Below, in pieces: positions 1 to 17,892 of a stretch of DNA of 64,000 nt. How positions within the stretch are numbered: position 1 is the first letter of the stretch; each line of letters begins with the position of its first letter. The position numbers were made by a program, and so were the translations under genes. The DNA lies in NCBI GenBank assembly GCA_036510875.1, contig DATCDE010000007.1, forward strand, positions 3,055 to 67,054. The letters run 5' to 3'. The DNA comes from Actinomycetes bacterium (GTDB taxonomy: Bacteria > Actinomycetota > Actinomycetes > Prado026). Under the pieces are notes generated by a model. The model did not search any database and had not been told where the DNA came from. It worked only from the letters and a program-made list of their open reading frames with translations.

Positions 1-294
1 GCCAGAGTCGAGCGCGCCGAACAGCTGCTCGTCGCCGGCGTACATGGTCAGCACGACGATGCCGAGGTCCGGGCGCTGCCGCCGTGCGGCCTTGACGATG
101 TCGAGGCCGCTGCCGTCGGGGAGCCGGACGTCGACGACGACGACATCCGGGTGCAGCACCGCCAGCTGCCGTGCCGCCTCGGCGACGGATCCGGCCTCGC
201 CGATGACCTCGAAGTCCTCGTTGCGCTCGAACGCGCGACGTAGCCCCTGCCGGATCAGCTCGTGGTCGTCAACGAGCAGCACGGTCGTGGACAT
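1..294 (-). CDS. Response regulator, NarL/LuxR family, receiver domain. Partial: the C-terminus lies beyond the window start.
   Basis: Reverse-strand translation MSTTVLLVDDHELIRQGLRRAFERNEDFEVIGEAGSVAEAARQLAVLHPDVVVVDVRLPDGSGLDIV... is a classic receiver. Its start overlaps the upstream kinase stop by 26 nt. Confidence 0.8.
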   Translation of the reverse strand, partial: MSTTVLLVDDHELIRQGLRRAFERNEDFEVIGEAGSVAEAARQLAVLHPDVVVVDVRLPDGSGLDIVKAARRQRPDLGIVVLTMYAGDEQLFGALDSG

Positions 295-1951
295 GGTCAC
301 CCCCTGCGTGGCCTAAACCGTTGGGAGAGTCCGGTGCGAGCTCACCCACGACGACCTCAACGACGGTACCTCCGCCGTCGCGTGGTCTTACCGTGAGGTC
401 GGCTCCGAGTCGTCTCGCACGCTCCCTCATGATCTCCATACCGTAACTGTCGGTACGCGAGGGCCCCAACCCGAGTCCGTCGTCCTCGATTCGCAGAAAG
501 GCGTTAGGCGGGTTCGTCTGGCAGGTCACCCACAGGTTGGCCGATCTGGCGTGCTTGCGGACGTTGGTGATGGACTCCTGGGCAATGCGAAGCAGCTCCG
601 CCTCAGTCTCGGCGCGCAGCCGGTGGGGGGACTCGTCCAGGATCAGGTGGACGGTGAGGTCCGAGGTGGCGCCGATGGTCCGCACGTAGTCCGACAGAGC
701 CGCCCCCAGGCCGGTGGAGGTGTGCACCTCGCTGCGCAGGTCGAAGATGGACAGCCGCAGCTCGGAGATGATCCGGGTCAGATCGGAACGCAGACTCTGC
801 AGCGCCTGGCGCTGCTCCTCGGTAGCCGCCCGGTATGCCATGTCGTCCATGACGTACCCCAGCGAAGCCAGCTCCTGCGCTATGCCGTCGTGGATCTCTC
901 GGGCCAACCGGCGGCGCTCCTCGGCGGTCGCGATCTGGCGCACCTCGGAGAACAGCAGAGCCGTCTCGATCCGCAGGGAGGCATCCGCGAGCAGGGTCTC
1001 GGCGGCAGCAAGCTCCTCGGACGTGAACGGTTCGTCGAGCCGCTCCACGCCGAGGATGCCGATCACGCGGACCCCAACGCGCAGTGGCAGGGCGGCGGCA
1101 TAGCCGTCCTCACCGCCGGAGAACAGCCCCTGGCCACGGCTGGGACTTCCGCTGGTCCAGGCCTCAGCCCAGAGGGAGTCGGCATCGATGGATGGATGCC
1201 AGTCGACCGGCATCGCGCTGCCGAAAGCGAGCGGCACGAGCAGTCCCCCCTCCGACCGGGCGAACAACGCAGCTCGGGAGTAGGCCACTGAGCGCTGCAG
1301 GTTCTCCAGGGTCGCCTGGGCGAGGGAATAGGCGTCCAAGCCGCCGGCGAGCTGCCGGGAAACCGTGCGCAGCTGGGACAGCAACCGGTACGCGGCCTGG
1401 TAGGAGGCCTGACTCGGGTCGCTCTGGGACTCCACCCGCAGTCGGCGTGCCCACGCCGCGAGCAGCCCCGCAATGAGCGAGAGCACCAGCCACTGGCCGG
1501 CGTAGGCCGAGAACGAGCGGGGGTCCGCCTCGACCACAACGGCGGTCAGCGCGAGGACGCCGAGCGCCAAGCCCACCGACACGGATGCGACGGAGGCGCC
1601 CCACAGAAGTCCGGCGGCGACGGCTGGCGCGATCAGATACGGCATCAAGGTCGCGCCGCTCGGCTCGTTGAGCCCGATGAGGAGGGCCGCCGCACCGATC
1701 TCGATCGCCGGCCCGATCCGAGCGATCGAACGCGCCGTTGCGAGGGTGGCCCCAGCAACGATGGCCAGCAGCAACCCGAGCGGCGGCCAGGCGACGTCGA
1801 AGCCAACGAGCAGCACCAGGACGACGGCCAGCATCGTGAAGAGGCCGAGGCGCAGCCCGATCACAAAGCCACGCGGACTCCTCAGCAGGGTGCGCAGTCG
1901 CATGGGCCGACGGTTGCACACGGGCTCATAGATTGCTACGGCCGGGGCCAT
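269..1951 (-). CDS. Sensor histidine kinase: multi-TM N-terminus, GAF domain, HisKA_3 (NarX/DesK type) and HATPase_c.
   Basis: Hydrophobic N-terminus, central GAF-like segment, H-box REIHDGIAQELASL, and a C-terminal ATPase with NVRKHA...DDGLGLG motifs. The true start may be an internal Met. Confidence 0.8.
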   Translation of the reverse strand: MAPAVAIYEPVCNRRPMRLRTLLRSPRGFVIGLRLGLFTMLAVVLVLLVGFDVAWPPLGLLLAIVAGATLATARSIARIGPAIEIGAAALLIGLNEPSGATLMPYLIAPAVAAGLLWGASVASVSVGLALGVLALTAVVVEADPRSFSAYAGQWLVLSLIAGLLAAWARRLRVESQSDPSQASYQAAYRLLSQLRTVSRQLAGGLDAYSLAQATLENLQRSVAYSRAALFARSEGGLLVPLAFGSAMPVDWHPSIDADSLWAEAWTSGSPSRGQGLFSGGEDGYAAALPLRVGVRVIGILGVERLDEPFTSEELAAAETLLADASLRIETALLFSEVRQIATAEERRRLAREIHDGIAQELASLGYVMDDMAYRAATEEQRQALQSLRSDLTRIISELRLSIFDLRSEVHTSTGLGAALSDYVRTIGATSDLTVHLILDESPHRLRAETEAELLRIAQESITNVRKHARSANLWVTCQTNPPNAFLRIEDDGLGLGPSRTDSYGMEIMRERARRLGADLTVRPRDGGGTVVEVVVGELAPDSPNGLGHAGGDHVHDRAAR

Positions 1952-1991: not shown

Positions 1992-2990
1992 GTGGAGGGT
2001 TTGAGTACTCTGAGCAGCGTCCTGCATGAAGCCAACTGCAAGTTGGAACAGGGGCGCTCCGCAGCTGCCAGCGTGTGGCCGACCGGCTTCACCCCGTTGG
2101 ACGCCTACCTCAACGGTGGTCTGCGCTCGGGCGAGCTGACGCTGCTGGGCGGGCCTCAGGGTCTGGGCAAGACCACCTTGGCACTGCAGCTCCTGCGTAA
2201 CGTCGTAGCGTCCGGTCACACCGCCGTCTACTTCTCCTTCGAGCACGACGCGGTCCTGGTCCTGGAGCGGCTGCTGGCAGTCGAAGCCGGACTCGCCGGA
2301 GGGATCGAGGCTCCGACGATCCGCCAGTTCCGGGAGGCGCTGGAGGCGGCGGACGGCCAGTTGGGCGGGCTTGAGGACCGGCTGGCTGCCACCGAGGGGG
2401 GCGCCGAGGCAGTTCTCGCAGTCCGGGCGTGGGGAGACCGCCTCATGATCCATCGCTCCAACGGCACAACCACGAGCGTGCAGACCATCGCCGCGGTCGT
2501 CCAGGAGGTCCGCGCCACCCACGGCCAGCCGCCGCTCGTCGTCGTCGACTACCTGCAGAAGGTCGCGGTGCCGCTCGGTGGCCCCAGCGAGGAGGAGCGG
2601 ATCACCGATGTGGTCCAGGGGCTGAAGGACCTGGCTCTGGCCGCCGACGTGCCGGTTCTGGCCGTCGTGGCAGCGGACAAGGAGGGTATCCGGGCGGGTC
2701 GTCGACTGCGCACCCACCACCTACGCGGCGCATCGGCCTTGGCCTACGAGGCCGACGTCGTACTCGTGATGAACGACAAGTTCAACGTGGTGGCCCGACA
2801 CCACCTGGTCTACGACATCACGAATGCCGAGAGCTTCCGCAACTTCGTGGTGGTGAGCCTCGAGAAGAACCGAAATGGGCTGGACCACATCGACCTGCAG
2901 TTTCGCAAGAGGTTCGAGCGCGGTCGCTTTGACCCGGAGGGGTCCGCAGTCTCCGAGCAGCTCGTCGACGAGCGGGTCTTTGTCGAGTAG
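1992..2990 (+). CDS. Stand-alone DnaB-helicase C-terminal-like RecA-fold ATPase. It lacks the DnaB N-terminal domain.
   Basis: PTGFTPLDAYLNGGLRSGELTLLGGPQGLGKTTLALQL matches the DnaB Walker A region. EADVVLVMND...LEKNRNG resembles the DnaB C-terminal motifs. It has a GTG start and sits divergent from the kinase gene (40 bp gap). Confidence 0.6.
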   Translation: MEGLSTLSSVLHEANCKLEQGRSAAASVWPTGFTPLDAYLNGGLRSGELTLLGGPQGLGKTTLALQLLRNVVASGHTAVYFSFEHDAVLVLERLLAVEAGLAGGIEAPTIRQFREALEAADGQLGGLEDRLAATEGGAEAVLAVRAWGDRLMIHRSNGTTTSVQTIAAVVQEVRATHGQPPLVVVDYLQKVAVPLGGPSEEERITDVVQGLKDLALAADVPVLAVVAADKEGIRAGRRLRTHHLRGASALAYEADVVLVMNDKFNVVARHHLVYDITNAESFRNFVVVSLEKNRNGLDHIDLQFRKRFERGRFDPEGSAVSEQLVDERVFVE

Positions 2991-2996
2991 CCGGCC

Positions 2997-3884
2997 CTAA
3001 CGGTCCTCGGCCTTGCGCGCTGTGTAGCGGATCAGCGCCCGCGCCAGCCGGCGGACTTCGAGTGCCTCGAGGAGAAAGGCCGCCGCGTCGCGGCCCAGGC
3101 TGGCTGACTGCTCGATGTTGTCCTCCGAGAACGGCGGATTGTTGCGGCGAGCGAGGATCAGTATGCCGCCGATGTGGGGGACAGGAATGGCCAAGAGATG
3201 CCGCCAACTCGCCAACGGTGCGCCGGCCAGCATCTGCCGGGCGATGTCGGTGTCCGTTACGAGCACACCGCGGGCACCGACGCCAACGGTCTGGACCAGC
3301 CAGTGATCGATCGAGAGCTCGGATCGGGCCTCCAAGGGTCGCAAGCCTGATCCCGCGGCAACCCACCAGTGGTTCTCCTCGCGCAGCATCAGGGCACCCG
3401 CGTCAGCCTTGTTCTCCACAAGTGCCTGCTGGAGGACGACCCTGCTGACCTCCGCGACGGTGGGGAGTCGGCCCGCGCTCGGCAGAAGTGCCCGCACCAG
3501 GTCGAGGGGCGTCATGGCCGAAAGCCCGGTGGGTTTGGGCTCCCGCCGGGCGACTTGGCCAGCCCCCTCAGGGGCGGTTGGTGAGACCTGAGTCGCGTCG
3601 AGCAACCGCTCCAGCGACTGGACGAGCGACGGCTGGCTGACCGGCCGGACGACGATCGAGGTCTGCGGCGGCCGCTGGACAGGAGTGACGTCCCAGTCCG
3701 GGCTGACCAGGACCAGCGCTGGGATCGGTGCGAAGCGGTGGCGCAAGGTCGTCAACAACCGGACCGTCTCGTCGGCGGACTGAAGGTCGAGCAGGATCGC
3801 GTCGACCGATGGGGGCTCCGCTGACTCGATGACCTCGTGCTCGGACAGCACGACCGTGGTGAAGCGCGTGCCGGCCAGCCCCAT
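2997..3884 (-). CDS. Receiver-like (REC) plus GAF domain protein encoded immediately downstream of tadC.
   Basis: N-terminus TTVVLSEHEVIE...ILLDLQSADETVRLL...PALVLVS looks receiver-like. The C-terminal about 150 aa look GAF-like. ATG at 3884. The upstream part of the long ORF 2997..4481 is low-complexity R/G/P and is treated as non-coding. Confidence 0.5.
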   Translation of the reverse strand: MGLAGTRFTTVVLSEHEVIESAEPPSVDAILLDLQSADETVRLLTTLRHRFAPIPALVLVSPDWDVTPVQRPPQTSIVVRPVSQPSLVQSLERLLDATQVSPTAPEGAGQVARREPKPTGLSAMTPLDLVRALLPSAGRLPTVAEVSRVVLQQALVENKADAGALMLREENHWWVAAGSGLRPLEARSELSIDHWLVQTVGVGARGVLVTDTDIARQMLAGAPLASWRHLLAIPVPHIGGILILARRNNPPFSEDNIEQSASLGRDAAAFLLEALEVRRLARALIRYTARKAEDR

Positions 3885-3925
3885 GGCGAGCGCCGGGGTC
3901 CGGGACACCACGAGGAGTCGAGGCA

Positions 3926-4864
3926 CTACAGCTTGCCGGTCAGCGAATTGATCACCGAGATGATGGCCGGCCCGACAACGACGATCATCATGACCGGAAG
4001 GATGCAGAAGATCAACGGGAAGAGCATCTTCACGGGGACCTTCTGGGCGGCTTCCTCCGCCCGCTGCGACCTCTTGATCCGCAGCTCGTGCGACTGGATC
4101 CGCAGCACGTTGGCGATGGGGATGCCGAACGAGTCGGCCTGAACCATCGCACTGGCGAAGCTCTTCATCTCCGGCAGGTTCGCCCGGTCGCCGAGGTCGC
4201 GAATCGCCTCCGACCGGCTGCGTCCGAGTTGCATCTCCTGCAACACCCTGAAGAACTCCGAGGCCAGGGGTCCCGCGGTGTTCCTGGACACCTCCGAAAG
4301 CGCACCGTCGAAGGACTGCCCCGCCTCCACCGAGATGGTCAGCATGTCGAGGGCGTCCGGGAGATCCCGGCGAAGCTGCTCGGTGCGCTTCACCGCTCGC
4401 TCGTTCAGGACAAGGTCGGGAGTGAAGTAACCGAGGACAGAAAGCCCGACCACTGCCGCCAGGAACCACACCACCCCCCATCCGAGCACGAGCGGCAGTG
4501 CTAGCCCGATCGCGAATCCGATGATCAGTCCCAGTGCCTTGAAGGCCAGGATCCGGTCGACGTTCCAGTGAGCAGGGTTTCCTGCCAGGTCCAGCCGCCG
4601 TCTGATGCGGGCAGCCTGCTCCGCGGGAGTGATGCGCCGGCCCATCTCGGTGAGCTGGGCGAAACCCGGCTTCGTCACTCGGTCTGCAAACGGTCGGTCC
4701 ATCGCACCACGTAGCTCCGGTGGCGTCGCCCGCATCGTGCTGACCGCCTCGAGCGACCGGCCCACACCTGTCGGTTCTCGGCGCAGGACCCCGAAGAAGC
4801 CGAGAAAGAGCAGCGTCCCCACGAAGAAGGCCCCGAGGCCGGCGAGCAGCAGCATCCCGCTCAC
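3926..4864 (-). CDS. tadC: Tad pilus assembly inner-membrane protein TadC (T2SS-F domain).
   Basis: TM-rich about 312 aa protein with T2SSF-like loops (GQSFDGALSEVSRNTAGPLASEF, LRIQSHELRIKRSQRAEEAAQK). Its start overlaps the tadB stop. Confidence 0.8.
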   Translation of the reverse strand: MSGMLLLAGLGAFFVGTLLFLGFFGVLRREPTGVGRSLEAVSTMRATPPELRGAMDRPFADRVTKPGFAQLTEMGRRITPAEQAARIRRRLDLAGNPAHWNVDRILAFKALGLIIGFAIGLALPLVLGWGVVWFLAAVVGLSVLGYFTPDLVLNERAVKRTEQLRRDLPDALDMLTISVEAGQSFDGALSEVSRNTAGPLASEFFRVLQEMQLGRSRSEAIRDLGDRANLPEMKSFASAMVQADSFGIPIANVLRIQSHELRIKRSQRAEEAAQKVPVKMLFPLIFCILPVMMIVVVGPAIISVINSLTGKL

Positions 4865-4865
4865 G

Positions 4866-6860
4866 TCAGTACTCCACCCTCACCACTCGACGGAGCCACA
4901 CGACGCCGACGATGAACAACACCAAACCGACGGTCAGCATGACCAACCCGAGCGGCGTCGTGAACAGCAGTGACAGGTATCCCGGCCGCACCAGCGCGAG
5001 AAAGACCGCAAAGATGAACGGCAGCAAGCCGATGATCCACGCCGACAGCCGACCCTCCGCGGACAGGACACGAACCTGGCGACGGAGCCGTTCCCGTTCC
5101 CGCAGAGTGCTGGCCACGTTGCGCAGCACCTCCGCCAGGTTACCGCCGACCTCCCGCTGGATCCGGATCGCCATCACCGTCCAACGGAAGTCCGTGCTGT
5201 CCATTCGCTCGCCGATCCCTGCGAGCGCGTCCTCGATCGGGACGCCGAGCCGAGCTTCCACGAGCGCATGGTTGAACTCCCCGGCGATGGGGTCGGCGCC
5301 TTCTCGGACGACAGAGTCGACGGCTTGGGGGAGGGAGTAGCCCGCCTGCAGACCGCCAGCCATGAGCTGCAGGGTGTCCGCCAGCTGGTCGTTGAAGGCG
5401 CTCAGCCGCCGGTTCCACCGCACGCTCAGATACGTCCAGGGGAGCAGCGCCCCCAGCCCCACCGCGATGAGCGCGGCAAGCAGTCGACCGGTGAGCAGTC
5501 CGACGAGCAAGCCGCTGCCGAGCGTAATGCCCGCATGGATGATCACCCACTCCGCGGGTTGGAGCGGGACAGCCGCTCGGTCCAACCGCTGGGCAAGTTC
5601 TACCTCCACGTCTCGGTTCTTGGTGACGCGGCCGGCGAACTCCACCGCGGATCGGGCGACCGCGCTGTCCCCGAGCGCCGGTGTGGACTCCGACTCCTTG
5701 ACTGGCAGCTTTCCGCGCAGAGTGTAGATCGCGATCCGTCGGTCGACGGCGCTGAGCTGGTCGCCGCCGAGGTCACGCATCGCCACTCCGAGCAGGATGG
5801 CAAGAGAGAGGAACAGCACGCCCAGCGCGGACCAGAGTGCGGGGCGCGTCAGATGGGCGTACCAGGGGGCGGTGACAGCGATGGGGCCCGCGGCAGCCGG
5901 GGTGGATGGCGAGCTGCTGGGGGAACCCTGGGTGCCCAGCAGCGGGACGAACACTGTGTCCGACAGCTGGGTGGTTCCGGCGTAGGCCTCGATGGTCAGC
6001 TGCTGGCTGTTCAGCAGGACAGTCGGCACGTCGACCAGAACCTGGAGCTGGTTGCTGATCGCGTTCGCACTCTGCACGAAGATCGTGCTGAGGTTGCTCG
6101 CCTGGGCGGTGGCCACCACCTGGCCCTTGCCAGCCGCCGTCAGAGTCTTGAGGGTCGCCAGCTGGCCCTGGCCCGCGCCCAGGGAGACGGCATCGACGAC
6201 GACCTGTGACCTGCCGATCGCGTTGGTGGCATCGGCCAGCGTCGCTTGGCTGGAACCGTCGTCCGCGCCGTCGCTGAGCACTAGAACCTGCCGGATCCCG
6301 GTACTGCCAGCGCTGGCTACAGCCAGCCGGACTCCGTCATAGAGCGCGGTACCACCGTTGGGTGGCGCCGACAGCCGGTCGATCGCAGCCCGGACGGCGA
6401 TCCGGTCGAGCGTGGGTGACAGGGCAAGCTGGGGGCGGCCGGCGAAGGTGACCAGCCCGACGCGTACCGATGCTGGCACCGAGGCGAGGAACTGCGAAGC
6501 TGCGGCCTTGGCGGCTGCTATCGGAGCTCCGTTCATGCTGCCCGAGGTGTCCATCGCGAGAATGGCGATCCGATGGACCGCGGTGTCCCCCTGGCCGACG
6601 ACCGTCGCGGTCGCGGGAAGGGCCGCGCCACCCACGCTGGCAGTGACGCTGGACGTGCTGATCGTCGTTCCTGTCGGGAGCCCGGCGGCTTCGAAGAATG
6701 CGGTGACCTGGGCTCCGTCGCTCGTCGGCTGAACCTTGGCCGAGACGATGCGACCGACCGGTCCGTTCGTTGCGGCCAAGGCCACCCCGGTGGGCATCAA
6801 CCCAACGGCCACCAGCAGCCCCAGCACAGTGAAGAGGCGACGGAACGGGAAAGCAGTCAC
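4866..6860 (-). CDS. tadB: Fusion protein: signal peptide, von Willebrand factor A (VWA) domain, Ser/Pro-rich linker, then TadB (T2SS-F domain).
   Basis: N-terminal MTAFPFRRLFTVLGLLVAVGLMPTGVALA is followed by a VWA MIDAS motif (ILAMDTSGSM...LVTFAGRP...LSDGADD). The C-terminal about 300 aa are a typical TadB T2SSF domain. Confidence 0.75.
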   Translation of the reverse strand: MTAFPFRRLFTVLGLLVAVGLMPTGVALAATNGPVGRIVSAKVQPTSDGAQVTAFFEAAGLPTGTTISTSSVTASVGGAALPATATVVGQGDTAVHRIAILAMDTSGSMNGAPIAAAKAAASQFLASVPASVRVGLVTFAGRPQLALSPTLDRIAVRAAIDRLSAPPNGGTALYDGVRLAVASAGSTGIRQVLVLSDGADDGSSQATLADATNAIGRSQVVVDAVSLGAGQGQLATLKTLTAAGKGQVVATAQASNLSTIFVQSANAISNQLQVLVDVPTVLLNSQQLTIEAYAGTTQLSDTVFVPLLGTQGSPSSSPSTPAAAGPIAVTAPWYAHLTRPALWSALGVLFLSLAILLGVAMRDLGGDQLSAVDRRIAIYTLRGKLPVKESESTPALGDSAVARSAVEFAGRVTKNRDVEVELAQRLDRAAVPLQPAEWVIIHAGITLGSGLLVGLLTGRLLAALIAVGLGALLPWTYLSVRWNRRLSAFNDQLADTLQLMAGGLQAGYSLPQAVDSVVREGADPIAGEFNHALVEARLGVPIEDALAGIGERMDSTDFRWTVMAIRIQREVGGNLAEVLRNVASTLRERERLRRQVRVLSAEGRLSAWIIGLLPFIFAVFLALVRPGYLSLLFTTPLGLVMLTVGLVLFIVGVVWLRRVVRVEY

Positions 6861-8254
6861 TACGATCGCCCGTACCTCTCGAACGCGAAGATCCGCGGGT
6901 CGACATCAACGCCTGCGTCCGACAGCTTCTCCAGGAACCGCGGGCGCAGCCCGGTGGACTTCAGCTGGCCCAGCGAGCGGCCGTGCTCGTCGAAGCCCAT
7001 GTGGTGGTCGAAGACGAACAGGTCCTGAAGAGTGATGATGTCGCCCTCCATCCCGACAACCTCAGACACGTGCGTGATGTGGCGCGTGCCGTCCTTGAAG
7101 CGGGCCTGGTGGACGATCAGGTCGATGGCGCTGGACACCTGTTCGCGGATCGCGCGCAGCGGCAGGTCGTAGCCGGCAAAGAGCACCATCGTCTCGATGC
7201 GAGCGAGGGTGTCCCGGGGGCTGTTCGCGTGCACGGTGCAGATCGACCCGTCGTGTCCGGTGTTCATCGCCTGCAGCATGTCCAGCGCGGCGGCGTCGCG
7301 CACCTCGCCGATGACGATGCGGTCAGGGCGCATGCGGAGGGCATTGCGCACGAGGTCCCGGACGGCGATCTCGCCCTTGCCCTCGATGTTCGGTGGGCGG
7401 GCCTCCAGCCTGATCACGTGCTCCTGGTGCATCTGGAGCTCCGCGGCGTCCTCGATGGTGATGATCCGCTCGTCGTTCGGGATGAAGGCGGACAGCACGT
7501 TCAGGGTGGTGGTCTTGCCGGCGCCAGTTCCGCCTGACACAAGGATGTTCAGCCGGCCGAGTACGCACGCCTCAAGGAACTCCGACACCGCGCGGCTCAG
7601 GGTGCCGAACCCGACCAGGTCGTCGACTTCGTAGGGGTCTGCGGCGAACTTGCGGATCGTCAGGGCGCTGCCATCCACCGCGAGTGGCGGGATGATCGCG
7701 TTGACCCGGCTGCCATCCTGCAGGCGGGCGTCGACCATGGGGCTCGACTCGTCGACCCGGCGACCAACGCGTCCGACGATCTTGTCGATGGTGCGACGCA
7801 AGTGGGCGTCGTCCGCGAACTGGGCGTCCACGGGGTAGATCCGCCCGCCCCGCTCGACATAGATGCGGTCGTAGCCGTTGACCATGACCTCGGTCACGTC
7901 CGCGTCCCGAAGGTACGGCTCGAGCGGCCCGTATCCGAGGATGTCGTCAGCGATCTCCTGTGAGATGCGAGCGCGGTCCGCCACTGTCAGCGGCGTCTCC
8001 TCCTTGGCCAGCACCTCCTGCAGGGTCGCTCGGACGCGCTGCTCGAGCTCGGGCTGGGTCAGTCGGGAGTCGTAGAGGTGCGGCCCGAGGGTCTCGAGGA
8101 GCGAGCGGTGGACCTCGCGCTTGAGGCCCGCGAACGGGTCGGCTCCGCGGGGGACGCGCGCTCCGGGCCCCTGCCGGCTGAGCGAGTCATTGTCGGGGGT
8201 GATCTCGGTGCCACGGGCCCGCCGAGCTTCGGCGAGGCGGTCGGAGAGGCTCAT
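6860..8254 (-). CDS. tadA: Tad/Flp pilus secretion ATPase TadA/CpaF.
   Basis: Walker A GGTGAGKTT, ...IEDAAEL..., GEVRD, TGHDGSICTVHANS: the canonical CpaF/VirB11-like signature. Confidence 0.9.
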   Translation of the reverse strand: MSLSDRLAEARRARGTEITPDNDSLSRQGPGARVPRGADPFAGLKREVHRSLLETLGPHLYDSRLTQPELEQRVRATLQEVLAKEETPLTVADRARISQEIADDILGYGPLEPYLRDADVTEVMVNGYDRIYVERGGRIYPVDAQFADDAHLRRTIDKIVGRVGRRVDESSPMVDARLQDGSRVNAIIPPLAVDGSALTIRKFAADPYEVDDLVGFGTLSRAVSEFLEACVLGRLNILVSGGTGAGKTTTLNVLSAFIPNDERIITIEDAAELQMHQEHVIRLEARPPNIEGKGEIAVRDLVRNALRMRPDRIVIGEVRDAAALDMLQAMNTGHDGSICTVHANSPRDTLARIETMVLFAGYDLPLRAIREQVSSAIDLIVHQARFKDGTRHITHVSEVVGMEGDIITLQDLFVFDHHMGFDEHGRSLGQLKSTGLRPRFLEKLSDAGVDVDPRIFAFERYGRS

Positions 8255-9453
8255 CTCGAGGACTTCCTTCCGAATCGGTGGCGCCGGTCATGGCGCAATG
8301 GAGAGGGAACGGAGTCGTCAACCGACGGCCCCACGACGACGTACCGCTCGGCGAACTGGCGGATCGCCTGGCTCACCGGGTGATTCGGCTGGTCCAGGGC
8401 GATCGGCACGCCGCGGTTGATGGTGGACGGGACCTCGCGAGAGGAGGGGATCTGCGCGACGATCTTGGCGTTGAGGGTCTTCTCGACGTCGGCCGCGGTC
8501 AGCCCCACCTTGGAGTCCGCCCTGTTGAGTACGACCACCCACCGGTCGCGGGAGTAGTTGAGGAGCTCGAGGGTCTCGAGGGTGAGCTTGAGGTTCTTGA
8601 TCGCAGGGATGTCCAAGGTGGCGATGTTCGCGATGATGTCGCTGCGGTCGAAGGCGGCCAGCACCTGGTCGTCGAACGCGGGCGGGGTGTCGACGACGAC
8701 GTAGTCGAACTGGTCGCGCAGTATCTCGAGCATCCGGCCGATCAGCTCGGCCGGGATGTGGCCTGCCGTGCCTGGCTCGACGGGCGCCACGAGAGCCGAC
8801 AGCCCAGGGGAGTGCCGGGTGATCAGGGATTTCAGGCCATCGGCGTCCAGGCTGTCACCCAGCGCAACCGCATCGGCGAGTGTGTGCGCGGGGAACAACT
8901 GGAGGACGATCGCCACATCCCCGAAGGCCAGGTCGAGGTCGAGAATGCAGACCTCCCGCCGGCCGTGGTCAGCGAGGATCGCGGCGAGGTTGGTGGCCAG
9001 GGTGGTCTTTCCGCACCCGCCCTTCGCCGAGAAGACGGTAACGATATGACCACGGTGCCCCGGGCTGGCATGCTCGCCCCCGCGAGTGTCTGCACTGCGC
9101 AGCCGTCGGGACAGGACCCGCGAGCGCCGGGCTGCCTCGGCTAGACCGGACAGGTCACGCTCCTCGACGACGTCCCGGACGCCGGCTCGGAGAGCCTCGG
9201 CCAGCACTGAGGCGTCTACCCGGCGGCGGACCAGGATGACCCCGATGCTTGGGTGCAGCACGCGCACCTCCGACGCGACACTCAGCGCAGTCGGCAGGTC
9301 GACGGTCGGACCGAACACCACCGTGTCCTCGGTCAGCCCTGGGACCAGGTGGTGTCGCAGGGCGTCGACGGACGGCAGGACCTCGGTGTCCGAGCCCAGC
9401 GCCGTCCGCAGGATGTCAGCGATCGAAGGGTCCAGGTCGACCACGATGGCCAT
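8251..9453 (-). CDS. tadZ: TadZ/CpaE: N-terminal receiver-like domain plus ParA/MinD-type ATPase.
   Basis: VFSAKGGCGKTTLATNLA deviant Walker A and DTPPAFDD motifs. Confidence 0.85.
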   Translation of the reverse strand: MAIVVDLDPSIADILRTALGSDTEVLPSVDALRHHLVPGLTEDTVVFGPTVDLPTALSVASEVRVLHPSIGVILVRRRVDASVLAEALRAGVRDVVEERDLSGLAEAARRSRVLSRRLRSADTRGGEHASPGHRGHIVTVFSAKGGCGKTTLATNLAAILADHGRREVCILDLDLAFGDVAIVLQLFPAHTLADAVALGDSLDADGLKSLITRHSPGLSALVAPVEPGTAGHIPAELIGRMLEILRDQFDYVVVDTPPAFDDQVLAAFDRSDIIANIATLDIPAIKNLKLTLETLELLNYSRDRWVVVLNRADSKVGLTAADVEKTLNAKIVAQIPSSREVPSTINRGVPIALDQPNHPVSQAIRQFAERYVVVGPSVDDSVPSPLRHDRRHRFGRKSSR

Positions 9454-9498: not shown

Positions 9499-10236
9499 TC
9501 AGCCAAACACGTTTGTTGAGGTGACGGCTCCACCGGGGCTGACCTTGGAGTCCGGGGTGAGCAGGGCGAAGTACAGCTGACCCTGTTGGGTGGCGTAGAT
9601 GATCTTGGTGGCCTCCTGCTGGGTGAGGGCCAGGGTGAGGATCGTCCGCGGGATCTGCTCTGAGTTCTGCTGCCCGCTGGAGTCGGTCGTGGTCTTGGTC
9701 ACCGTGGTCGTGTTGCCGACCCCGACGACGGTCACCCGGGGGAGCAGGATCTGGGTGACGCTGGTTTGGGCCGCGGCGGTTCCGGACGAGATGGTTGCGA
9801 AAACCGAGACCTCGGACCCGTTGCTCACGAACCCGGCTACCCGCTCCGGGTCGCCCAGCTGGACGCTCACCGCGATCTTCCCGGCTGGGATCGGCAGCGT
9901 GCTCTGCGAGCCGGCAGGACCGAACTGCTGCTGGAGGATCTGCTCGCCAGGGAAGATCGGAGACAGGGCCACCAGGGCTGCCACCGCGGTGATGTCACTC
10001 AGGGCTCCTTTTGCGACCGAGTTCTGGGCCACCTCGCGCGGTTCAAGTGCCCCGCTTTCGGCAGCCGAGGAGCCCGTCGTACCGGCGGAGATCTGGGACT
10101 TGGCGAAGAGTACCTTGACCAGCTGTTGCCCGGCTGCTGCGCGCTGGTCGGCTCCTCGGGCGTAGAGGAACACCAGGCCGGTTCCCAGTGCCGCGACAAG
10201 TAGCGCGGCCACGAGCAGGATCGTTCTGCGTCCCAT
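9499..10236 (-). CDS. cpaB: Flp pilus assembly protein CpaB/RcpC (SAF domain).
   Basis: N-terminal TM (MGRRTILLVAALLVAALGTGLVFLYA) and a Thr/Ser/Gly-rich beta-type domain typical of CpaB. RBS GAGAGG lies upstream. Confidence 0.75.
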   Translation of the reverse strand: MGRRTILLVAALLVAALGTGLVFLYARGADQRAAAGQQLVKVLFAKSQISAGTTGSSAAESGALEPREVAQNSVAKGALSDITAVAALVALSPIFPGEQILQQQFGPAGSQSTLPIPAGKIAVSVQLGDPERVAGFVSNGSEVSVFATISSGTAAAQTSVTQILLPRVTVVGVGNTTTVTKTTTDSSGQQNSEQIPRTILTLALTQQEATKIIYATQQGQLYFALLTPDSKVSPGGAVTSTNVFG

Positions 10237-10536: not shown

Positions 10537-12327
10537 TCAGCGGTAGATGGCGTCGATCTCGGCGGCGAATCGCTCCATCACGACCCCCCGCCTGAGTTTC
10601 ATCGTCGGGGTGAGCTGGCCGCTCGACTCGGTGAAGTCCTCGGTGAGAAGGCTGAACTTCTTGATCGCCTCGGCGTGGGAGACCGCTTTGTTGGCGTCGT
10701 CCACGGCGGCCTGGACGGCGGCCAGCACCTCCGGGTCCTCGACGACGGCGGCCGGCGGCAGGTCGGCCGGTTTGCCGTGGGCGGTCAGCCAGCCGGGCAG
10801 GGACTCGGCGTCGAGGGTCACCAGGGCCGCGATGAACGGTTGGCGGTCACCCACGACCATGCAGTGGCTGATCAGCTGATGCGCGCGCAGCCGGTCCTCG
10901 AGCACCGCCGGGGCCACGTTCTTGCCCCCGGCGGTGACGATGAGCTCCTTCTTTCGCCCGGTGATGAACAGGTAGCCGTCGTCGTCCAGCCGGCCGATGT
11001 CGCCGGTGTGGAACCAGCCGTCCGGTTCCAGGGCCTCCTTGGTCGCCGTCTCGTTGCGCCAGTAGCCGACGAACACGTGGTCGCCCTTGAGCAGGACCTC
11101 GCCGTCCTCGGCGATCCGGACCGACCCGCCGGGGATCGGCTGGCCCACCGACCCGACCCGGATCGCGTCCGGCCGGTTGATGGTGGCGCCCGCGGAGGTC
11201 TCGGTGAGGCCGTAGCCCTCCAAGATGGTGATCCCGGCGCCGCGGAAGAAGTGGCCCAGGCGCGCACCCAGCGGTGCGCCGCCCGACACGGCGTACTCGA
11301 TCCGCCCGCCCATGCGCTCCCGCAGCTTGCTGTAGACGAGCCGGTCGAACAGCGCGTGCTGCAGCCGGACCCCCAGGCCCGGGCCGCCGGCGTCCAGCCC
11401 CTCGCTGTAGGCGACGGCTGTGGCGGCGGCGCGCTCGAAGATCTTGCCCTTGCCCTCGGCGGTGGCCTTGGCCTGGGCGCCGTTGAAGACCTTTTCGAAC
11501 ACGCGGGGCACGGAAAGGATGAAAGTCGGCCGGAAGCCGGCCAGGTCGTCCAGCAGCGCGGCCGGGTCCGCGGTGTGCCCGAGCACGACCCCGGCGTGGA
11601 CGCACCCGATCTGGATGAGCCGGCCGAACACGTGCGCCAGCGGGATGAACAGCAGCGTCGACTTGCCGGGCCCGAAGACCTCGCCGAGCCCGGCCACCAC
11701 GTTGGTCACGTCGGCCAGCATGTTGTGGTGGGTCAGCTCGCAGCCCTTGGGGCGCCCCGTGGTCCCGGAGGTGTAGATCAAAGTGCCCAGGCTGTCTGCT
11801 GTCAGCGTGCGTCGACGCTCCTCGACGTCGGCGTCGGGCACCTCGGCCCCCGCCTCCACGAGCGCGTCGATCGCGCCCGAGTCGATCCGCCACACGTTGC
11901 CGACGTTGGGGACGGCGGCCAGCACCTCGGTGACCGTCCGCTCGTGCTCCTCGTGCTCGACGAAGCAGGCGACCGCGCCCGAGTCGGTCAGGATCCACTC
12001 CACCTGCTCGGCCGAGGAGGTCTCGTAGATCGGCACCGGAACCGCGCCGGCGGCCCACAGCGCGAAGTCGGCGAGGGTCCACTCGTAACGGGTGCGGGAC
12101 ATGATGCCCACCCGGTCGCCGGGGCCGACCCCGGAGGCCATCAGCCCCTTCGCCAAGTCGGTCACCTCGGCCAGGAACTGCCGGGAGGTGACGTCCTGCC
12201 ACCGATCACCGACCTTGCGTCGGAACTGCACCCGGTGGGGGGTCCGGACGGCGTTGTCGTAGACCAGATCGGAGAGGTTGCGCTCGGTGGGCACCTCTGC
12301 GGCGGCGGGGACGCTGAACTCGTGCAC
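10537..12327 (-). CDS. fadD: Long-chain-fatty-acid-CoA ligase (AMP-binding, FadD15-like).
   Basis: IYTSGTTGRPKG, EGYGLTET, TGDIGRLDDDGYLFITGRKKE motifs. Proposed GTG start is at VHEFSVP (12327); the longer ORF runs to 12525. Confidence 0.85.
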   Translation of the reverse strand: MHEFSVPAAAEVPTERNLSDLVYDNAVRTPHRVQFRRKVGDRWQDVTSRQFLAEVTDLAKGLMASGVGPGDRVGIMSRTRYEWTLADFALWAAGAVPVPIYETSSAEQVEWILTDSGAVACFVEHEEHERTVTEVLAAVPNVGNVWRIDSGAIDALVEAGAEVPDADVEERRRTLTADSLGTLIYTSGTTGRPKGCELTHHNMLADVTNVVAGLGEVFGPGKSTLLFIPLAHVFGRLIQIGCVHAGVVLGHTADPAALLDDLAGFRPTFILSVPRVFEKVFNGAQAKATAEGKGKIFERAAATAVAYSEGLDAGGPGLGVRLQHALFDRLVYSKLRERMGGRIEYAVSGGAPLGARLGHFFRGAGITILEGYGLTETSAGATINRPDAIRVGSVGQPIPGGSVRIAEDGEVLLKGDHVFVGYWRNETATKEALEPDGWFHTGDIGRLDDDGYLFITGRKKELIVTAGGKNVAPAVLEDRLRAHQLISHCMVVGDRQPFIAALVTLDAESLPGWLTAHGKPADLPPAAVVEDPEVLAAVQAAVDDANKAVSHAEAIKKFSLLTEDFTESSGQLTPTMKLRRGVVMERFAAEIDAIYR

Positions 12328-12400
12328 GGTCGCGGCCTCCCGGTTGGGGTCGTGGTCGGACCAAACTAGGGCCTCGGGGCCGCGATGGCATGCTCTTGCC

Positions 12401-12862
12401 GTGCCCTGGGTCGACCTCATCGACGAGACCTTCATCGTCGCCGCACCCGGTGAGCTGGCCGCGGTGGTCCACGACCCGCAGCGGTGGCGCAGCTGGTGGC
12501 CGGGCCTGCAGCTCGCCGTGTTCATGGACCGCGGGGAGCAGGGGGTGCGCTGGTCGGTGACCGGCGACCTCGTCGGGTCGGCCGAGATCTGGCTGGAGCC
12601 GTTTGGTGACGGCGTCGTCGTCCACCACTACCTGCGGGCCGACCCGACCCGGCCCGGCAGCCGCACGCAGGTGGTCGAGGGCGCTCCCGCCGCGCTGGCG
12701 CGACTGGCCGACCGGATCCGCCGGCGCCACGCGCTGGCGTGGAAGCGCTCGGTGAACGCACTCAAGGACGAGCTGGAGGCCGGCCGGCCCCCGGGAACCC
12801 CGCGGACCGGGGTCAAGCCAACGCCCGAGGCTGCCGAACCATTAACCCGTGAGGGTGACTGA
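12401..12862 (+). CDS. SRPBCC family protein (polyketide cyclase/dehydrase-like).
   Basis: About 153 aa with WVDLIDETFIVAAP...W...VVHHYLRADP. GTG start; sits divergent from fadD. Confidence 0.55.
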   Translation: MPWVDLIDETFIVAAPGELAAVVHDPQRWRSWWPGLQLAVFMDRGEQGVRWSVTGDLVGSAEIWLEPFGDGVVVHHYLRADPTRPGSRTQVVEGAPAALARLADRIRRRHALAWKRSVNALKDELEAGRPPGTPRTGVKPTPEAAEPLTREGD

Positions 12863-16330: not shown

Positions 16331-17404
16331 TCACTTGTAGAGCGAGACTCCGGTCACACCCATGTCGCAGCTGGAGCCGAAAGCGCATGACCCGCCAGCT
16401 CCTGGGTAGCTGCTCGTCGAGTAGTTGACATACTGGAATTCCAAGAAGTCGACCTTGTTGTCGATGTATTTGGCCGCCTTGCTGGCATCCCAGCAGGATC
16501 CCCTGCCGATCTTGTTGTTCAGGGAGTATCCGCAGATCTTCGCGCCCACGAACGCCACGGTGTCGAACGATGGGTTGTTGACGCCGCGCGTGTGGTTGTA
16601 CCGGGTGACGACGGGCAGTAGCACGACTTGATCGAGCAGCGAGGTCAGCGGTCCGTCTATCTCGCCGGGGCGCGGCATTCGTCCAGCGGGGAGTTGCCGG
16701 TCGATTGTGATCGCTCCGGGGTAGCCATTTCGGGTCCAGTCCGCGAGGTCGTTGGCGCCATACGCGCCCCCGTTGAAGTCGACCGTCCCCCAGTTCCCGG
16801 GCTCGGTCGTTCCGCAGATCCCGATCTTGTTGTTCAGGTCGGCTACGAAAGTCTGGTTCGGGCGCGCCATGGCGTTCTGCGCCGTGGCTAGACAGATGGC
16901 GAAGGGACGCAGGCCGGTCACCGTGGTGGCCGGCCCGATCCGCGCGGTTGCCTGCTGCTTCGGCGTCAACGGCTGGGGGTTTCCACCGAACAGCTTCAGT
17001 GCCGACAGGAAGAACGACTGGACCTCCTTGGAGTTGCTGACCTGAACCTCGATAGCAGTTCCGTTGTCCACGCAGCGGGGTTGGCCGACGACGATGCTCG
17101 AGCCTGGCGCTGTCCCCTGTTCCGAAGCCTGAGCCGCGCTGATGGCCGCAGAGATGGCCGTAGACGTCAGCACCTCCTCGCAGTTCCCGGGGTTGATCGG
17201 CGCGACTTCACCGATCCGTCCAGCAGCCGCCAGCGCGGCACCGTCGGCCGCGACCGAGAGGTTGCGTTTGGTGGCCCAGGCGGCGCTGACGTCGACCGCG
17301 GCTGCTGCCATCAGCATCAGCAACGGCAACAGGATCGCTACCAGGGCCGCCACCGCACCCTCGTCGCGCCGAGATGGCACCCGTCGACTCAGCTGAACTC
17401 GCAT
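16331..17404 (-). CDS. tadG: TadG-like (TadE/G pseudopilin family) Flp pilus assembly protein.
   Basis: ATG at 17404 gives MRVQLSRRVPSRRDEGAVAALVAILLPLLMLMAAAAVDVSAAW (TadE-like N-terminus). The ORF upstream of it is arginine-rich junk. Confidence 0.65.
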   Translation of the reverse strand: MRVQLSRRVPSRRDEGAVAALVAILLPLLMLMAAAAVDVSAAWATKRNLSVAADGAALAAAGRIGEVAPINPGNCEEVLTSTAISAAISAAQASEQGTAPGSSIVVGQPRCVDNGTAIEVQVSNSKEVQSFFLSALKLFGGNPQPLTPKQQATARIGPATTVTGLRPFAICLATAQNAMARPNQTFVADLNNKIGICGTTEPGNWGTVDFNGGAYGANDLADWTRNGYPGAITIDRQLPAGRMPRPGEIDGPLTSLLDQVVLLPVVTRYNHTRGVNNPSFDTVAFVGAKICGYSLNNKIGRGSCWDASKAAKYIDNKVDFLEFQYVNYSTSSYPGAGGSCAFGSSCDMGVTGVSLYK

Positions 17405-17892
17405 CGATACACCGCCTTGGAGGACAGCGTGATCGTGGGTCCGAGACCCAGCGGCAGAATGAACTCTGCCGGGTAGGTGGCCTTGACGATCAGGCTCGCA
17501 TTCTCGCCGTTGGACGAGTCGAGACTGTTGGTGCACGGCACCGAGGTACTCCTCGGGTTGGCGCCGGTGCCGCACGCGTTGCTGCCGTCGGACCGGGTCA
17601 CCGTGACGTTGATCAGGTTCTGCCGGTTGACCACTCCGAGGGTTCCGGCTGCAGCGGCGCGGACGTTGGCCACCACGGTGTTGCACTGCCGGTCGATGCC
17701 CCCGCCGGCGACCACCGCGGCTCGGGCACCCTCGCGTACCGCGTTGTTCACCGTCAGCTGGGCGCTGAATACCCAGCCGAAACTGATGATCCCGAAGAGC
17801 AGGAGCAGGAGGATTGGCAAAATCAGCACGAACTCCACAGCAGCCGCGCCGTCCGCGCCGAGAGCCCGCAGGCTGGCCGACCCTCGTCCCAT
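17389..17892 (-). CDS. tadE: TadE-like pseudopilin.
   Basis: AAAVEFVLILPILLLLLFGIISFGWVFSAQ is the TadE N-terminal motif. RBS AGGTGGGGGG is present. The stop overlaps the tadG start. Confidence 0.75.
   Translation of the reverse strand: MGRGSASLRALGADGAAAVEFVLILPILLLLLFGIISFGWVFSAQLTVNNAVREGARAAVVAGGGIDRQCNTVVANVRAAAAGTLGVVNRQNLINVTVTRSDGSNACGTGANPRSTSVPCTNSLDSSNGENASLIVKATYPAEFILPLGLGPTITLSSKAVYRCEFS

Follow-up and report, generated by a model that had tools for sequence, protein, structure and literature searches.

The 64,000-nucleotide stretch of DNA analyzed here (the window; contig DATCDE010000007.1 of assembly GCA_036510875.1, from an Actinomycetes bacterium) carries a Tad pilus operon that ends in a gene encoding a receiver-like domain tethered to a GAF domain. 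With about as much confidence as doubt, we read the product as an optional accessory of the Tad machine in uncultured Actinomycetota, a regulator or adaptor that cannot be phosphorylated and in which the GAF domain does the work. In related genomes, the gene may or may not be inserted between tadC and a module of histidine kinase, response regulator, and flp pilin genes, but where it occurs it is strictly linked to tad. Judging from its active-site residues, the receiver-like domain is a pseudo-receiver that is probably no longer phosphorylatable.

The coding sequence for the pseudo-receiver-GAF protein extends from position 2997 to 3926 on the minus strand (309 amino acids), with a GTG start codon at 3926-3924 and a TAG stop codon at 2999-2997. 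We place the start at GTG 3926 because full-length homologues all begin 14 residues upstream of the ATG at 3884, with the N terminus MPRLL(V/M)VSRTPSLAMGLAG, because the predicted models place beta-1, the first strand of the receiver fold, in the additional residues (3 to 8), and because metagenome gene calls agree, an identical 309-residue call (P0001, 100% identical) being present on two independent contigs. The preliminary description had started the protein at ATG 3884 (295 residues), which is 14 codons too short and omits beta-1. It had also placed the gene 41 bp downstream of tadC; there is no such spacer, as the GTG start overlaps the tadC stop codon (TAG, 3928-3926) by 1 nucleotide. 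The junction is similarly tight in relatives, ranging from a 17-nucleotide overlap up to a gap of a few nucleotides. The overlap of stop and start codons indicates translational coupling with tadC, and the protein is probably co-translated with the Tad platform proteins. The gene region has a guanine-plus-cytosine (GC) content of approximately 68% and contains long spurious open reading frames on both strands. For instance, the frame of the pseudo-receiver-GAF gene is open across all of tadC (3000 to 4865, minus strand), yielding a 494-residue open reading frame with an ATG start (2997 to 4481) within a stop-to-stop frame that reaches 4865. This open frame through tadC is a high-GC artefact, which could mislead gene callers on the start. 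There is a single copy of the gene within the window.

All family members with upstream context (about 40 loci, 14 anchored on the protein and 26 on TadC) directly follow tadC, and wherever the contig extends far enough in relatives, it carries the preceding genes as far back as tadZ or cpaB. The independent anchoring on TadC drew on the best 80 of at least 307 metagenome loci (TadC 50% to 62% identical); 64 loci with at least 400 nucleotides downstream of tadC were counted, 35 of them with at least 1.8 kb, and these loci are not phylogenetically independent. A pseudo-receiver was found in 24 of the 64, a GAF domain alone in 2, and neither in 38. The distance from the tadC match to the start of the pseudo-receiver is 5 to 51 nucleotides in 23 of the 24 loci and 156 nucleotides in the remaining one. 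Conservation after tadC in relatives, which the preliminary description had proposed as a check, is therefore borne out at about 40 loci, where the pseudo-receiver or GAF sequence begins no more than a few tens of nucleotides from the end of tadC, with the qualification that only 26 of the 64 related tad loci carry the gene. A core Tad component would be expected at every tad locus of the clade; carriage by this minority is more in keeping with a modulator than with such a component.

Gene order downstream of tadC was compared in the 35 longer loci. The kinase gene follows tadC directly in 15 of these, and a convergent ATPase gene and then the kinase gene follow in 9. The pseudo-receiver-GAF gene is followed by the ATPase and kinase genes in seven loci, as in the window, and by the kinase gene in three; a GAF-only gene precedes the kinase gene in one. 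A kinase gene is thereby found downstream of tadC in all 35 loci, and in 24 of them no other gene intervenes between tadC and the ATPase or kinase gene, the two being at most 396 nucleotides apart or, at one locus, overlapping by 35 nucleotides. The order tadC, pseudo-receiver-GAF, ATPase, kinase recurs in loci L003 to L008, L012, L014, L015, L017, and L018, and L019 follows it to the end of its contig.

The preliminary description recognized a receiver-like domain followed by a GAF domain without a DNA-binding output, and both domain calls hold in Pfam matches of relatives, the family profile, and Foldseek comparisons. The pseudo-receiver (residues 1 to 113; 3588 to 3926, minus strand) is predicted to adopt the CheY-like (beta-alpha)5 fold. 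It is joined by a disordered Pro/Ala-rich tether (residues 114 to 139; 3510 to 3587, minus strand), delimited by the model and by the linkers of relatives, to a GAF domain (residues 140 to 299; 3030 to 3509, minus strand) that is the most conserved part of the family and is predicted to have the characteristic antiparallel sheet with flanking helices. An AlphaFold2 model of the full-length protein, built with a 46-sequence family alignment, has a mean predicted local distance difference test score (pLDDT) of 90.7, with the (beta-alpha)5 domain at residues 3 to 113, disorder at residues 117 to 126 (pLDDT below 50), and the GAF-like domain at pLDDT 93 to 98. The predicted template modeling score is 0.61 for the full-length model because the arrangement of the domains is flexible. 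Neither the model nor a sequence scan showed a hydrophobic segment or any output domain, DNA-binding or otherwise, and the protein is therefore considered soluble.

Pfam GAF_2 (PF13185) matches all 13 relatives scanned (best E 2.5e-8), and many database relatives carry a precomputed PF13185 assignment. In Foldseek searches against the PDB, the GAF part matches PtsP (3ci6), 3eea, DosS/DosT, PDE2A, and cyanobacteriochrome GAF domains with a probability of 1.00 and target-normalized TM-scores of 0.6 to 0.77, and GAF domains make up most of the 50 matches listed for the full model. The window protein contains no cysteine. Bilin-attaching GAF domains use cysteine, so covalent attachment of a bilin by this GAF domain is excluded. 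Homology to receivers emerges from a family profile and from structure: Pfam Response_reg (PF00072) has no match in the window protein or in the 13 relatives even at E <= 1, but a profile of the family N-terminal domain matches solved receivers, including PhoP (E 1.2e-8), CheY (2.6e-7), and dozens more. Designed TIM barrels in the same list were discounted as short repeated beta-alpha alignments. When the 295-residue open reading frame was compared as a single sequence with PDB sequences, the matches were at chance level only, and no NCBIfam model matches the protein.

To assess the receiver active site, key positions were mapped by profile alignment to CheY and PhoB, and residues were counted over 130 family members. 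In the window protein, CheY D12/D13 correspond to S8/R9, D57 to D47 (which aligns with PhoB D53), T87 to V74 (with S75 adjacent), K109 to R94, and P110 to P95. The Mg2+-binding acidic pair and the T87/K109 switch residues are thus absent, and the phospho-acceptor aspartate is retained as D47. Across the family, the D12 position is S in 101 members, T in 20, and A in 9, and is acidic in none, and the D13 position is R in 91 and D in 8. The D57 position is D in 107 members, E in 10, G in 8, A in 3, and Q in 2. At the T87 position we counted S 47 times, A 40, T 13, and G 11, and at the K109 position L 98 times, R 11, and K 3; the cis-proline at P110 is kept in 129 of 130. In receivers, the acidic pair holds Mg2+, and phosphotransfer is unlikely in the absence of this pair and the lysine. 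Since both have been lost, phosphotransfer to the pseudo-receiver is unlikely. The preliminary description had called the protein phospho-responsive, a view that is difficult to maintain given that these losses are family-wide and that the adjacent kinase has a canonical NarL-type regulator of its own.

Fifty-six relatives, all unnamed, were recovered by a word-indexed search. When 1.84 billion cluster representatives (clusters at 50% identity) were searched exhaustively with a profile, 248 clusters matched at E <= 1e-30 and 439 at E <= 1e-10; the proteins are 295 to 1252 residues long. The ten clusters that were sampled are annotated as "hypothetical protein", unnamed, or evidently misnamed, and derive from metagenomes or from an "Actinomycetota bacterium" metagenome-assembled genome (MAG). 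A scan of one genome per species yielded nine loci, all in MAGs of uncultured Actinomycetota or Actinomycetes, the taxonomy of the carriers being resolved to phylum or class level. Over 186 members, the GAF domain is far better conserved than the pseudo-receiver, and the positions conserved in at least 90% of members are W187, R196, E199, R201, W209, R230, G235, P237, R260, F266, R292, and R296. The linker is rich in Pro, Ala, Gly, and Ser and disordered, and varies across the family from approximately 25 residues (in the window protein, among the shortest) to about 960, which suggests two tethered modules and not rigid allostery from receiver to GAF. The longest proteins (P0121, P0122, and P0156; 1186 to 1252 residues) have 900 to 960 residues of Pro/Ala/Gly-rich disorder between the two domains. 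Complete open reading frames of approximately 185 residues that encode the GAF domain without pseudo-receiver and linker lie directly 3' of tadC in loci L034 (approximately 5300 to 5880) and L038 (approximately 2330 to 2880). Their presence in the same slot suggests that the GAF domain is the indispensable part. GAF-only versions also occur in the family as P0033, P0034, and P0119.

Downstream, the nearest gene is convergent and encodes a single-domain RecA-superfamily ATPase (DnaB_C/AAA_25/KaiC-like; 1992 to 2990, plus strand) whose stop codon lies 6 nucleotides from that of the pseudo-receiver-GAF gene. The protein matches DnaB_C (E 8e-24), AAA_25, and KaiC, and has the Walker B motif "VVVDYLQ". 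The ATPase gene is present in 16 of the 35 related loci. An obligate pairing with the pseudo-receiver-GAF gene was rejected, since all four combinations of presence and absence occur (Fisher p = 0.27, for loci that are not phylogenetically independent). The ATPase recalls the KaiC-like protein ArlH, which binds the motor ATPase of the archaellum. A specific link to ArlH is unsupported by sequence, as a search of PDB sequences gave generic RecA, DnaB, KaiC, and RadA matches only. The ATPase gene contains at its 3' end a perfect palindrome, GCTCGTCGACGAGC (2960 to 2973, plus strand), that was marked as terminator-like; the region has 3 such sites compared with 2.8 expected. Searches for promoters and terminators gave no more than chance-level results, and Rfam had no match in the window.

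Beyond the ATPase lies the gene for a membrane histidine kinase (269 to 1951, minus strand), approximately 1 kb from the pseudo-receiver-GAF gene, with a hydrophobic, multi-span N terminus followed by GAF_3, HisKA_3, and HATPase_c domains. Its end overlaps the 5' part of a gene for a canonical NarL/LuxR-type response regulator with DD, D, and T motifs (1 to 294, minus strand), which is cut by the window edge. With this overlapping regulator, the kinase is not an orphan in need of the pseudo-receiver as a substrate. In relatives whose contigs reach far enough, the NarL-type regulator gene has one or two flp pilin genes downstream of it; such kinase-regulator-flp modules are seen at 5783-8407 in L014 and at 12174-15124 in L017, and the flp of the window organism lies beyond the left edge. 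The possibility that the GAF domain of the pseudo-receiver-GAF protein is a recent duplicate of the kinase GAF domain was rejected (BLASTP E 0.15).

Upstream, the gene is preceded by a minus-strand run of cpaB, tadZ, tadA, tadB, and tadC, in agreement with its earlier designation as the last gene of the tad operon. The first gene of this machinery operon is cpaB/rcpC (9499 to 10236, minus strand; TIGR03177, 93 bits, above cutoff), followed on the same strand by tadZ/cpaE, which encodes a ParA/MinD-type ATPase (8251 to 9453), and by the tadA/cpaF secretion ATPase gene (T2SSE; 6860 to 8254). TadB (4866 to 6860, minus strand) is fused to an N-terminal signal/transmembrane segment (residues 8 to 31) and a vWA domain (residues approximately 100 to 260) that lie ahead of T2SSF, a fusion shared by L014, L015, L017, and L019. 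The vWA domain is probably extracytoplasmic because it is preceded by the signal/transmembrane segment. The operon continues with tadC (T2SSF, with a weak N-terminal DUF5936 match; 3926 to 4864, minus strand), whose stop codon overlaps the start of the pseudo-receiver-GAF gene. Genes for TadE (17389 to 17892, minus strand) and a TadG-like protein (approximately 16331 to 17422, minus strand) are located roughly 6 kb upstream of cpaB, with an AMP-binding acyl-CoA ligase gene (10537 to 12525, minus strand) and other unrelated genes in between. The tad locus is split in this genome, since tadE and tadG are contiguous with cpaB in L017.

On the reading as an accessory regulator or adaptor, the invariant Arg/Trp-rich loops and the C-terminal helix of the GAF domain would serve to bind a ligand or a component of the machine, and the pseudo-receiver would act as a tethered docking module. 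The output would be protein-protein contact with cytoplasmic or inner-membrane parts of the machine (TadA, TadZ, or TadB/C), and not phosphotransfer or DNA binding. Sensing of a small molecule by the GAF domain is plausible, the conserved Arg and Trp residues being only suggestive of it. A more specific and speculative version, which we consider improbable as it stands, is that the GAF domain is the receptor of a second messenger of the nucleotide type, such as cyclic di-GMP, and that the protein docks directly on TadA or TadB/C to switch the monoderm pilus between assembly, retraction, and idling, with the leashed pseudo-receiver as an anchor to TadZ or another landmark. Several observations weigh against the accessory regulator or adaptor. 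The GAF_2 match in the window protein itself (24 bits, E 4.9e-5) is below the gathering score of 28.6. The acceptor aspartate is kept in 107 of 130 members, so the domain may have some Asp-dependent role. Every member comes from an uncultured organism, and the partners, the ligand, and the effect on pilus assembly are inferred. Further, the kinase-regulator pair is as constant a neighbor as tadC (35 of 35 loci), so that gene neighborhoods do not tell whether the protein acts on the machine or on pilin gene expression.

This last point leads to the main alternative, which we regard as a real but distinctly minority possibility. According to it, the protein binds the membrane GAF-HisKA_3 kinase or the NarL-type regulator and tunes flp transcription, serving as a connector or decoy that feeds the status of the machine or of a ligand to pilin supply. 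The kinase follows tadC in every one of the 35 loci, flp genes follow the kinase-regulator pair, the pseudo-receiver-GAF gene sits exactly at the junction of tadC and the kinase module, and receiver-like domains are natural docking surfaces for kinases; a precedent for two-component control of type IVb pili exists in PprA-PprB (PMC3510237, PMC6821963). However, the start codon overlaps the stop of tadC and not a kinase gene, a convergent ATPase gene often separates the two, and the GAF domain has no specific similarity to that of the kinase (E 0.15). GAF-only variants would lack the receiver-like docking domain, and the kinase module of most related loci operates in the absence of a pseudo-receiver-GAF gene. 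Phosphotransfer from this kinase to a regulator of pilus assembly, as envisaged in the preliminary description, would be consistent with the receiver fold, with an aspartate at the acceptor position (D47, and 82% of the family), and with a kinase gene approximately 1 kb away. We consider it very unlikely, as the acidic pair is replaced by S8/R9 (the D12 position being acidic in 0 of 130), the window protein has Arg at the equivalent of K109, where 75% of members have Leu, and 18% carry G, A, Q, or E in place of the acceptor aspartate itself; moreover, the kinase comes with its own overlapping canonical regulator, and GAF-only variants exist.

The protein might instead be a pure scaffold or localization factor that positions or clusters Tad machines, comparable to the atypical receiver of TadZ, RomR, or FrzS, with a ligand-free GAF domain used for interaction or dimerization. 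This is rather unlikely in our judgment. In canonical GAF domains, the beta2-beta3 and beta4-beta5 loops and helix alpha3 form the ligand pocket, and it is to these elements that the conserved R196, E199, R201, W209, R230, and R260 map (on a secondary-structure map, not coordinates); there is also no sequence similarity to the N terminus of the window TadZ. A decaying or functionless passenger open reading frame at the operon end would account for the absence of the gene from 59% of closely related tad loci and for evidence that is metagenomic only, but this is hardly credible for a family of at least 248 clusters (50% identity, E <= 1e-30) with near-invariant GAF residues over 186 members, confident models, a conserved position, and a start codon that overlaps the tadC stop.

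Tad pili function in adhesion, surface sensing, and DNA uptake, and the post-translational control of their single motor is little known, least of all in monoderms. The family described here is a compact, conserved, machine-linked candidate regulator of these pili, and its natural variants (full-length, GAF-only, or absent, with or without the ATPase) provide a ready-made comparative experiment. It also illustrates that, before phospho-control is assumed for a receiver fold encoded in a pilus operon, the active-site residues need to be checked. If the second-messenger version were true, the protein would be a dedicated new post-translational input device for Tad pili in a clade represented by metagenomes only.

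According to the preliminary description, this arrangement is not known from well-studied Tad systems. Our literature search for a receiver-GAF protein in tad loci likewise found nothing relevant in the library covered, and the sampled members are unnamed or "hypothetical". Among receiver-like accessories, TadZ/CpaE has an atypical receiver fused to a ParA/MinD-type ATPase, whereas the pseudo-receiver-GAF protein has no P-loop ATPase and ends in a GAF domain. Derivation of the pseudo-receiver from the TadZ N terminus was rejected (hhalign probability of 0.2% against the window TadZ), and its sequence profile is nearer to OmpR/PhoB-type receivers than to TadZ. RomR and FrzS are polarity regulators of the type IVa pilus of Myxococcus; they belong to another pilus class and another phylum, the protein described here differs in its C-terminal GAF module, and the likeness is known at the level of the receiver fold only. 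Protein-protein contact at type IV filament machines has been proposed both for the atypical receiver domains of TadZ and for the degenerate receiver of RomR (bioRxiv 10.64898/2026.07.08.737194).

The best Foldseek match over both domains is a REC-GAF dual-sensor histidine kinase (6oap; E 4.3e-10, about 337 aligned columns), which has the same receiver-then-GAF order (6oap, 6oaq, 6ob8) and, by entry titles, structures in green-light and BeF3- bound states. Unlike this kinase, the pseudo-receiver-GAF protein has no kinase output, no cysteine, a degenerate acceptor site, and a disordered tether. The ShkA pseudo-receiver and the GAF domain of the actinobacterial PdtaS of M. tuberculosis bind cyclic di-GMP (PMC10519070), a likeness by domain type and not by sequence comparison. 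PprA-PprB is a two-component system that controls the type IVb (Flp/Tad) pili of Pseudomonas aeruginosa (PMC3510237, PMC6821963). It is the best analogue for the neighboring kinase-NarL regulator-flp module, the layout of which resembles the pilin-control modules PilS/PilR and PprA/PprB, and not for the pseudo-receiver-GAF protein. In P. aeruginosa, pprAB adjoins the tad locus, and no pseudo-receiver-GAF gene is known there. Receiver-like accessories of type IV filaments and GAF sensors are thus already known kinds of protein, and their union in the pseudo-receiver-GAF family is a new, unnamed, clade-restricted combination.
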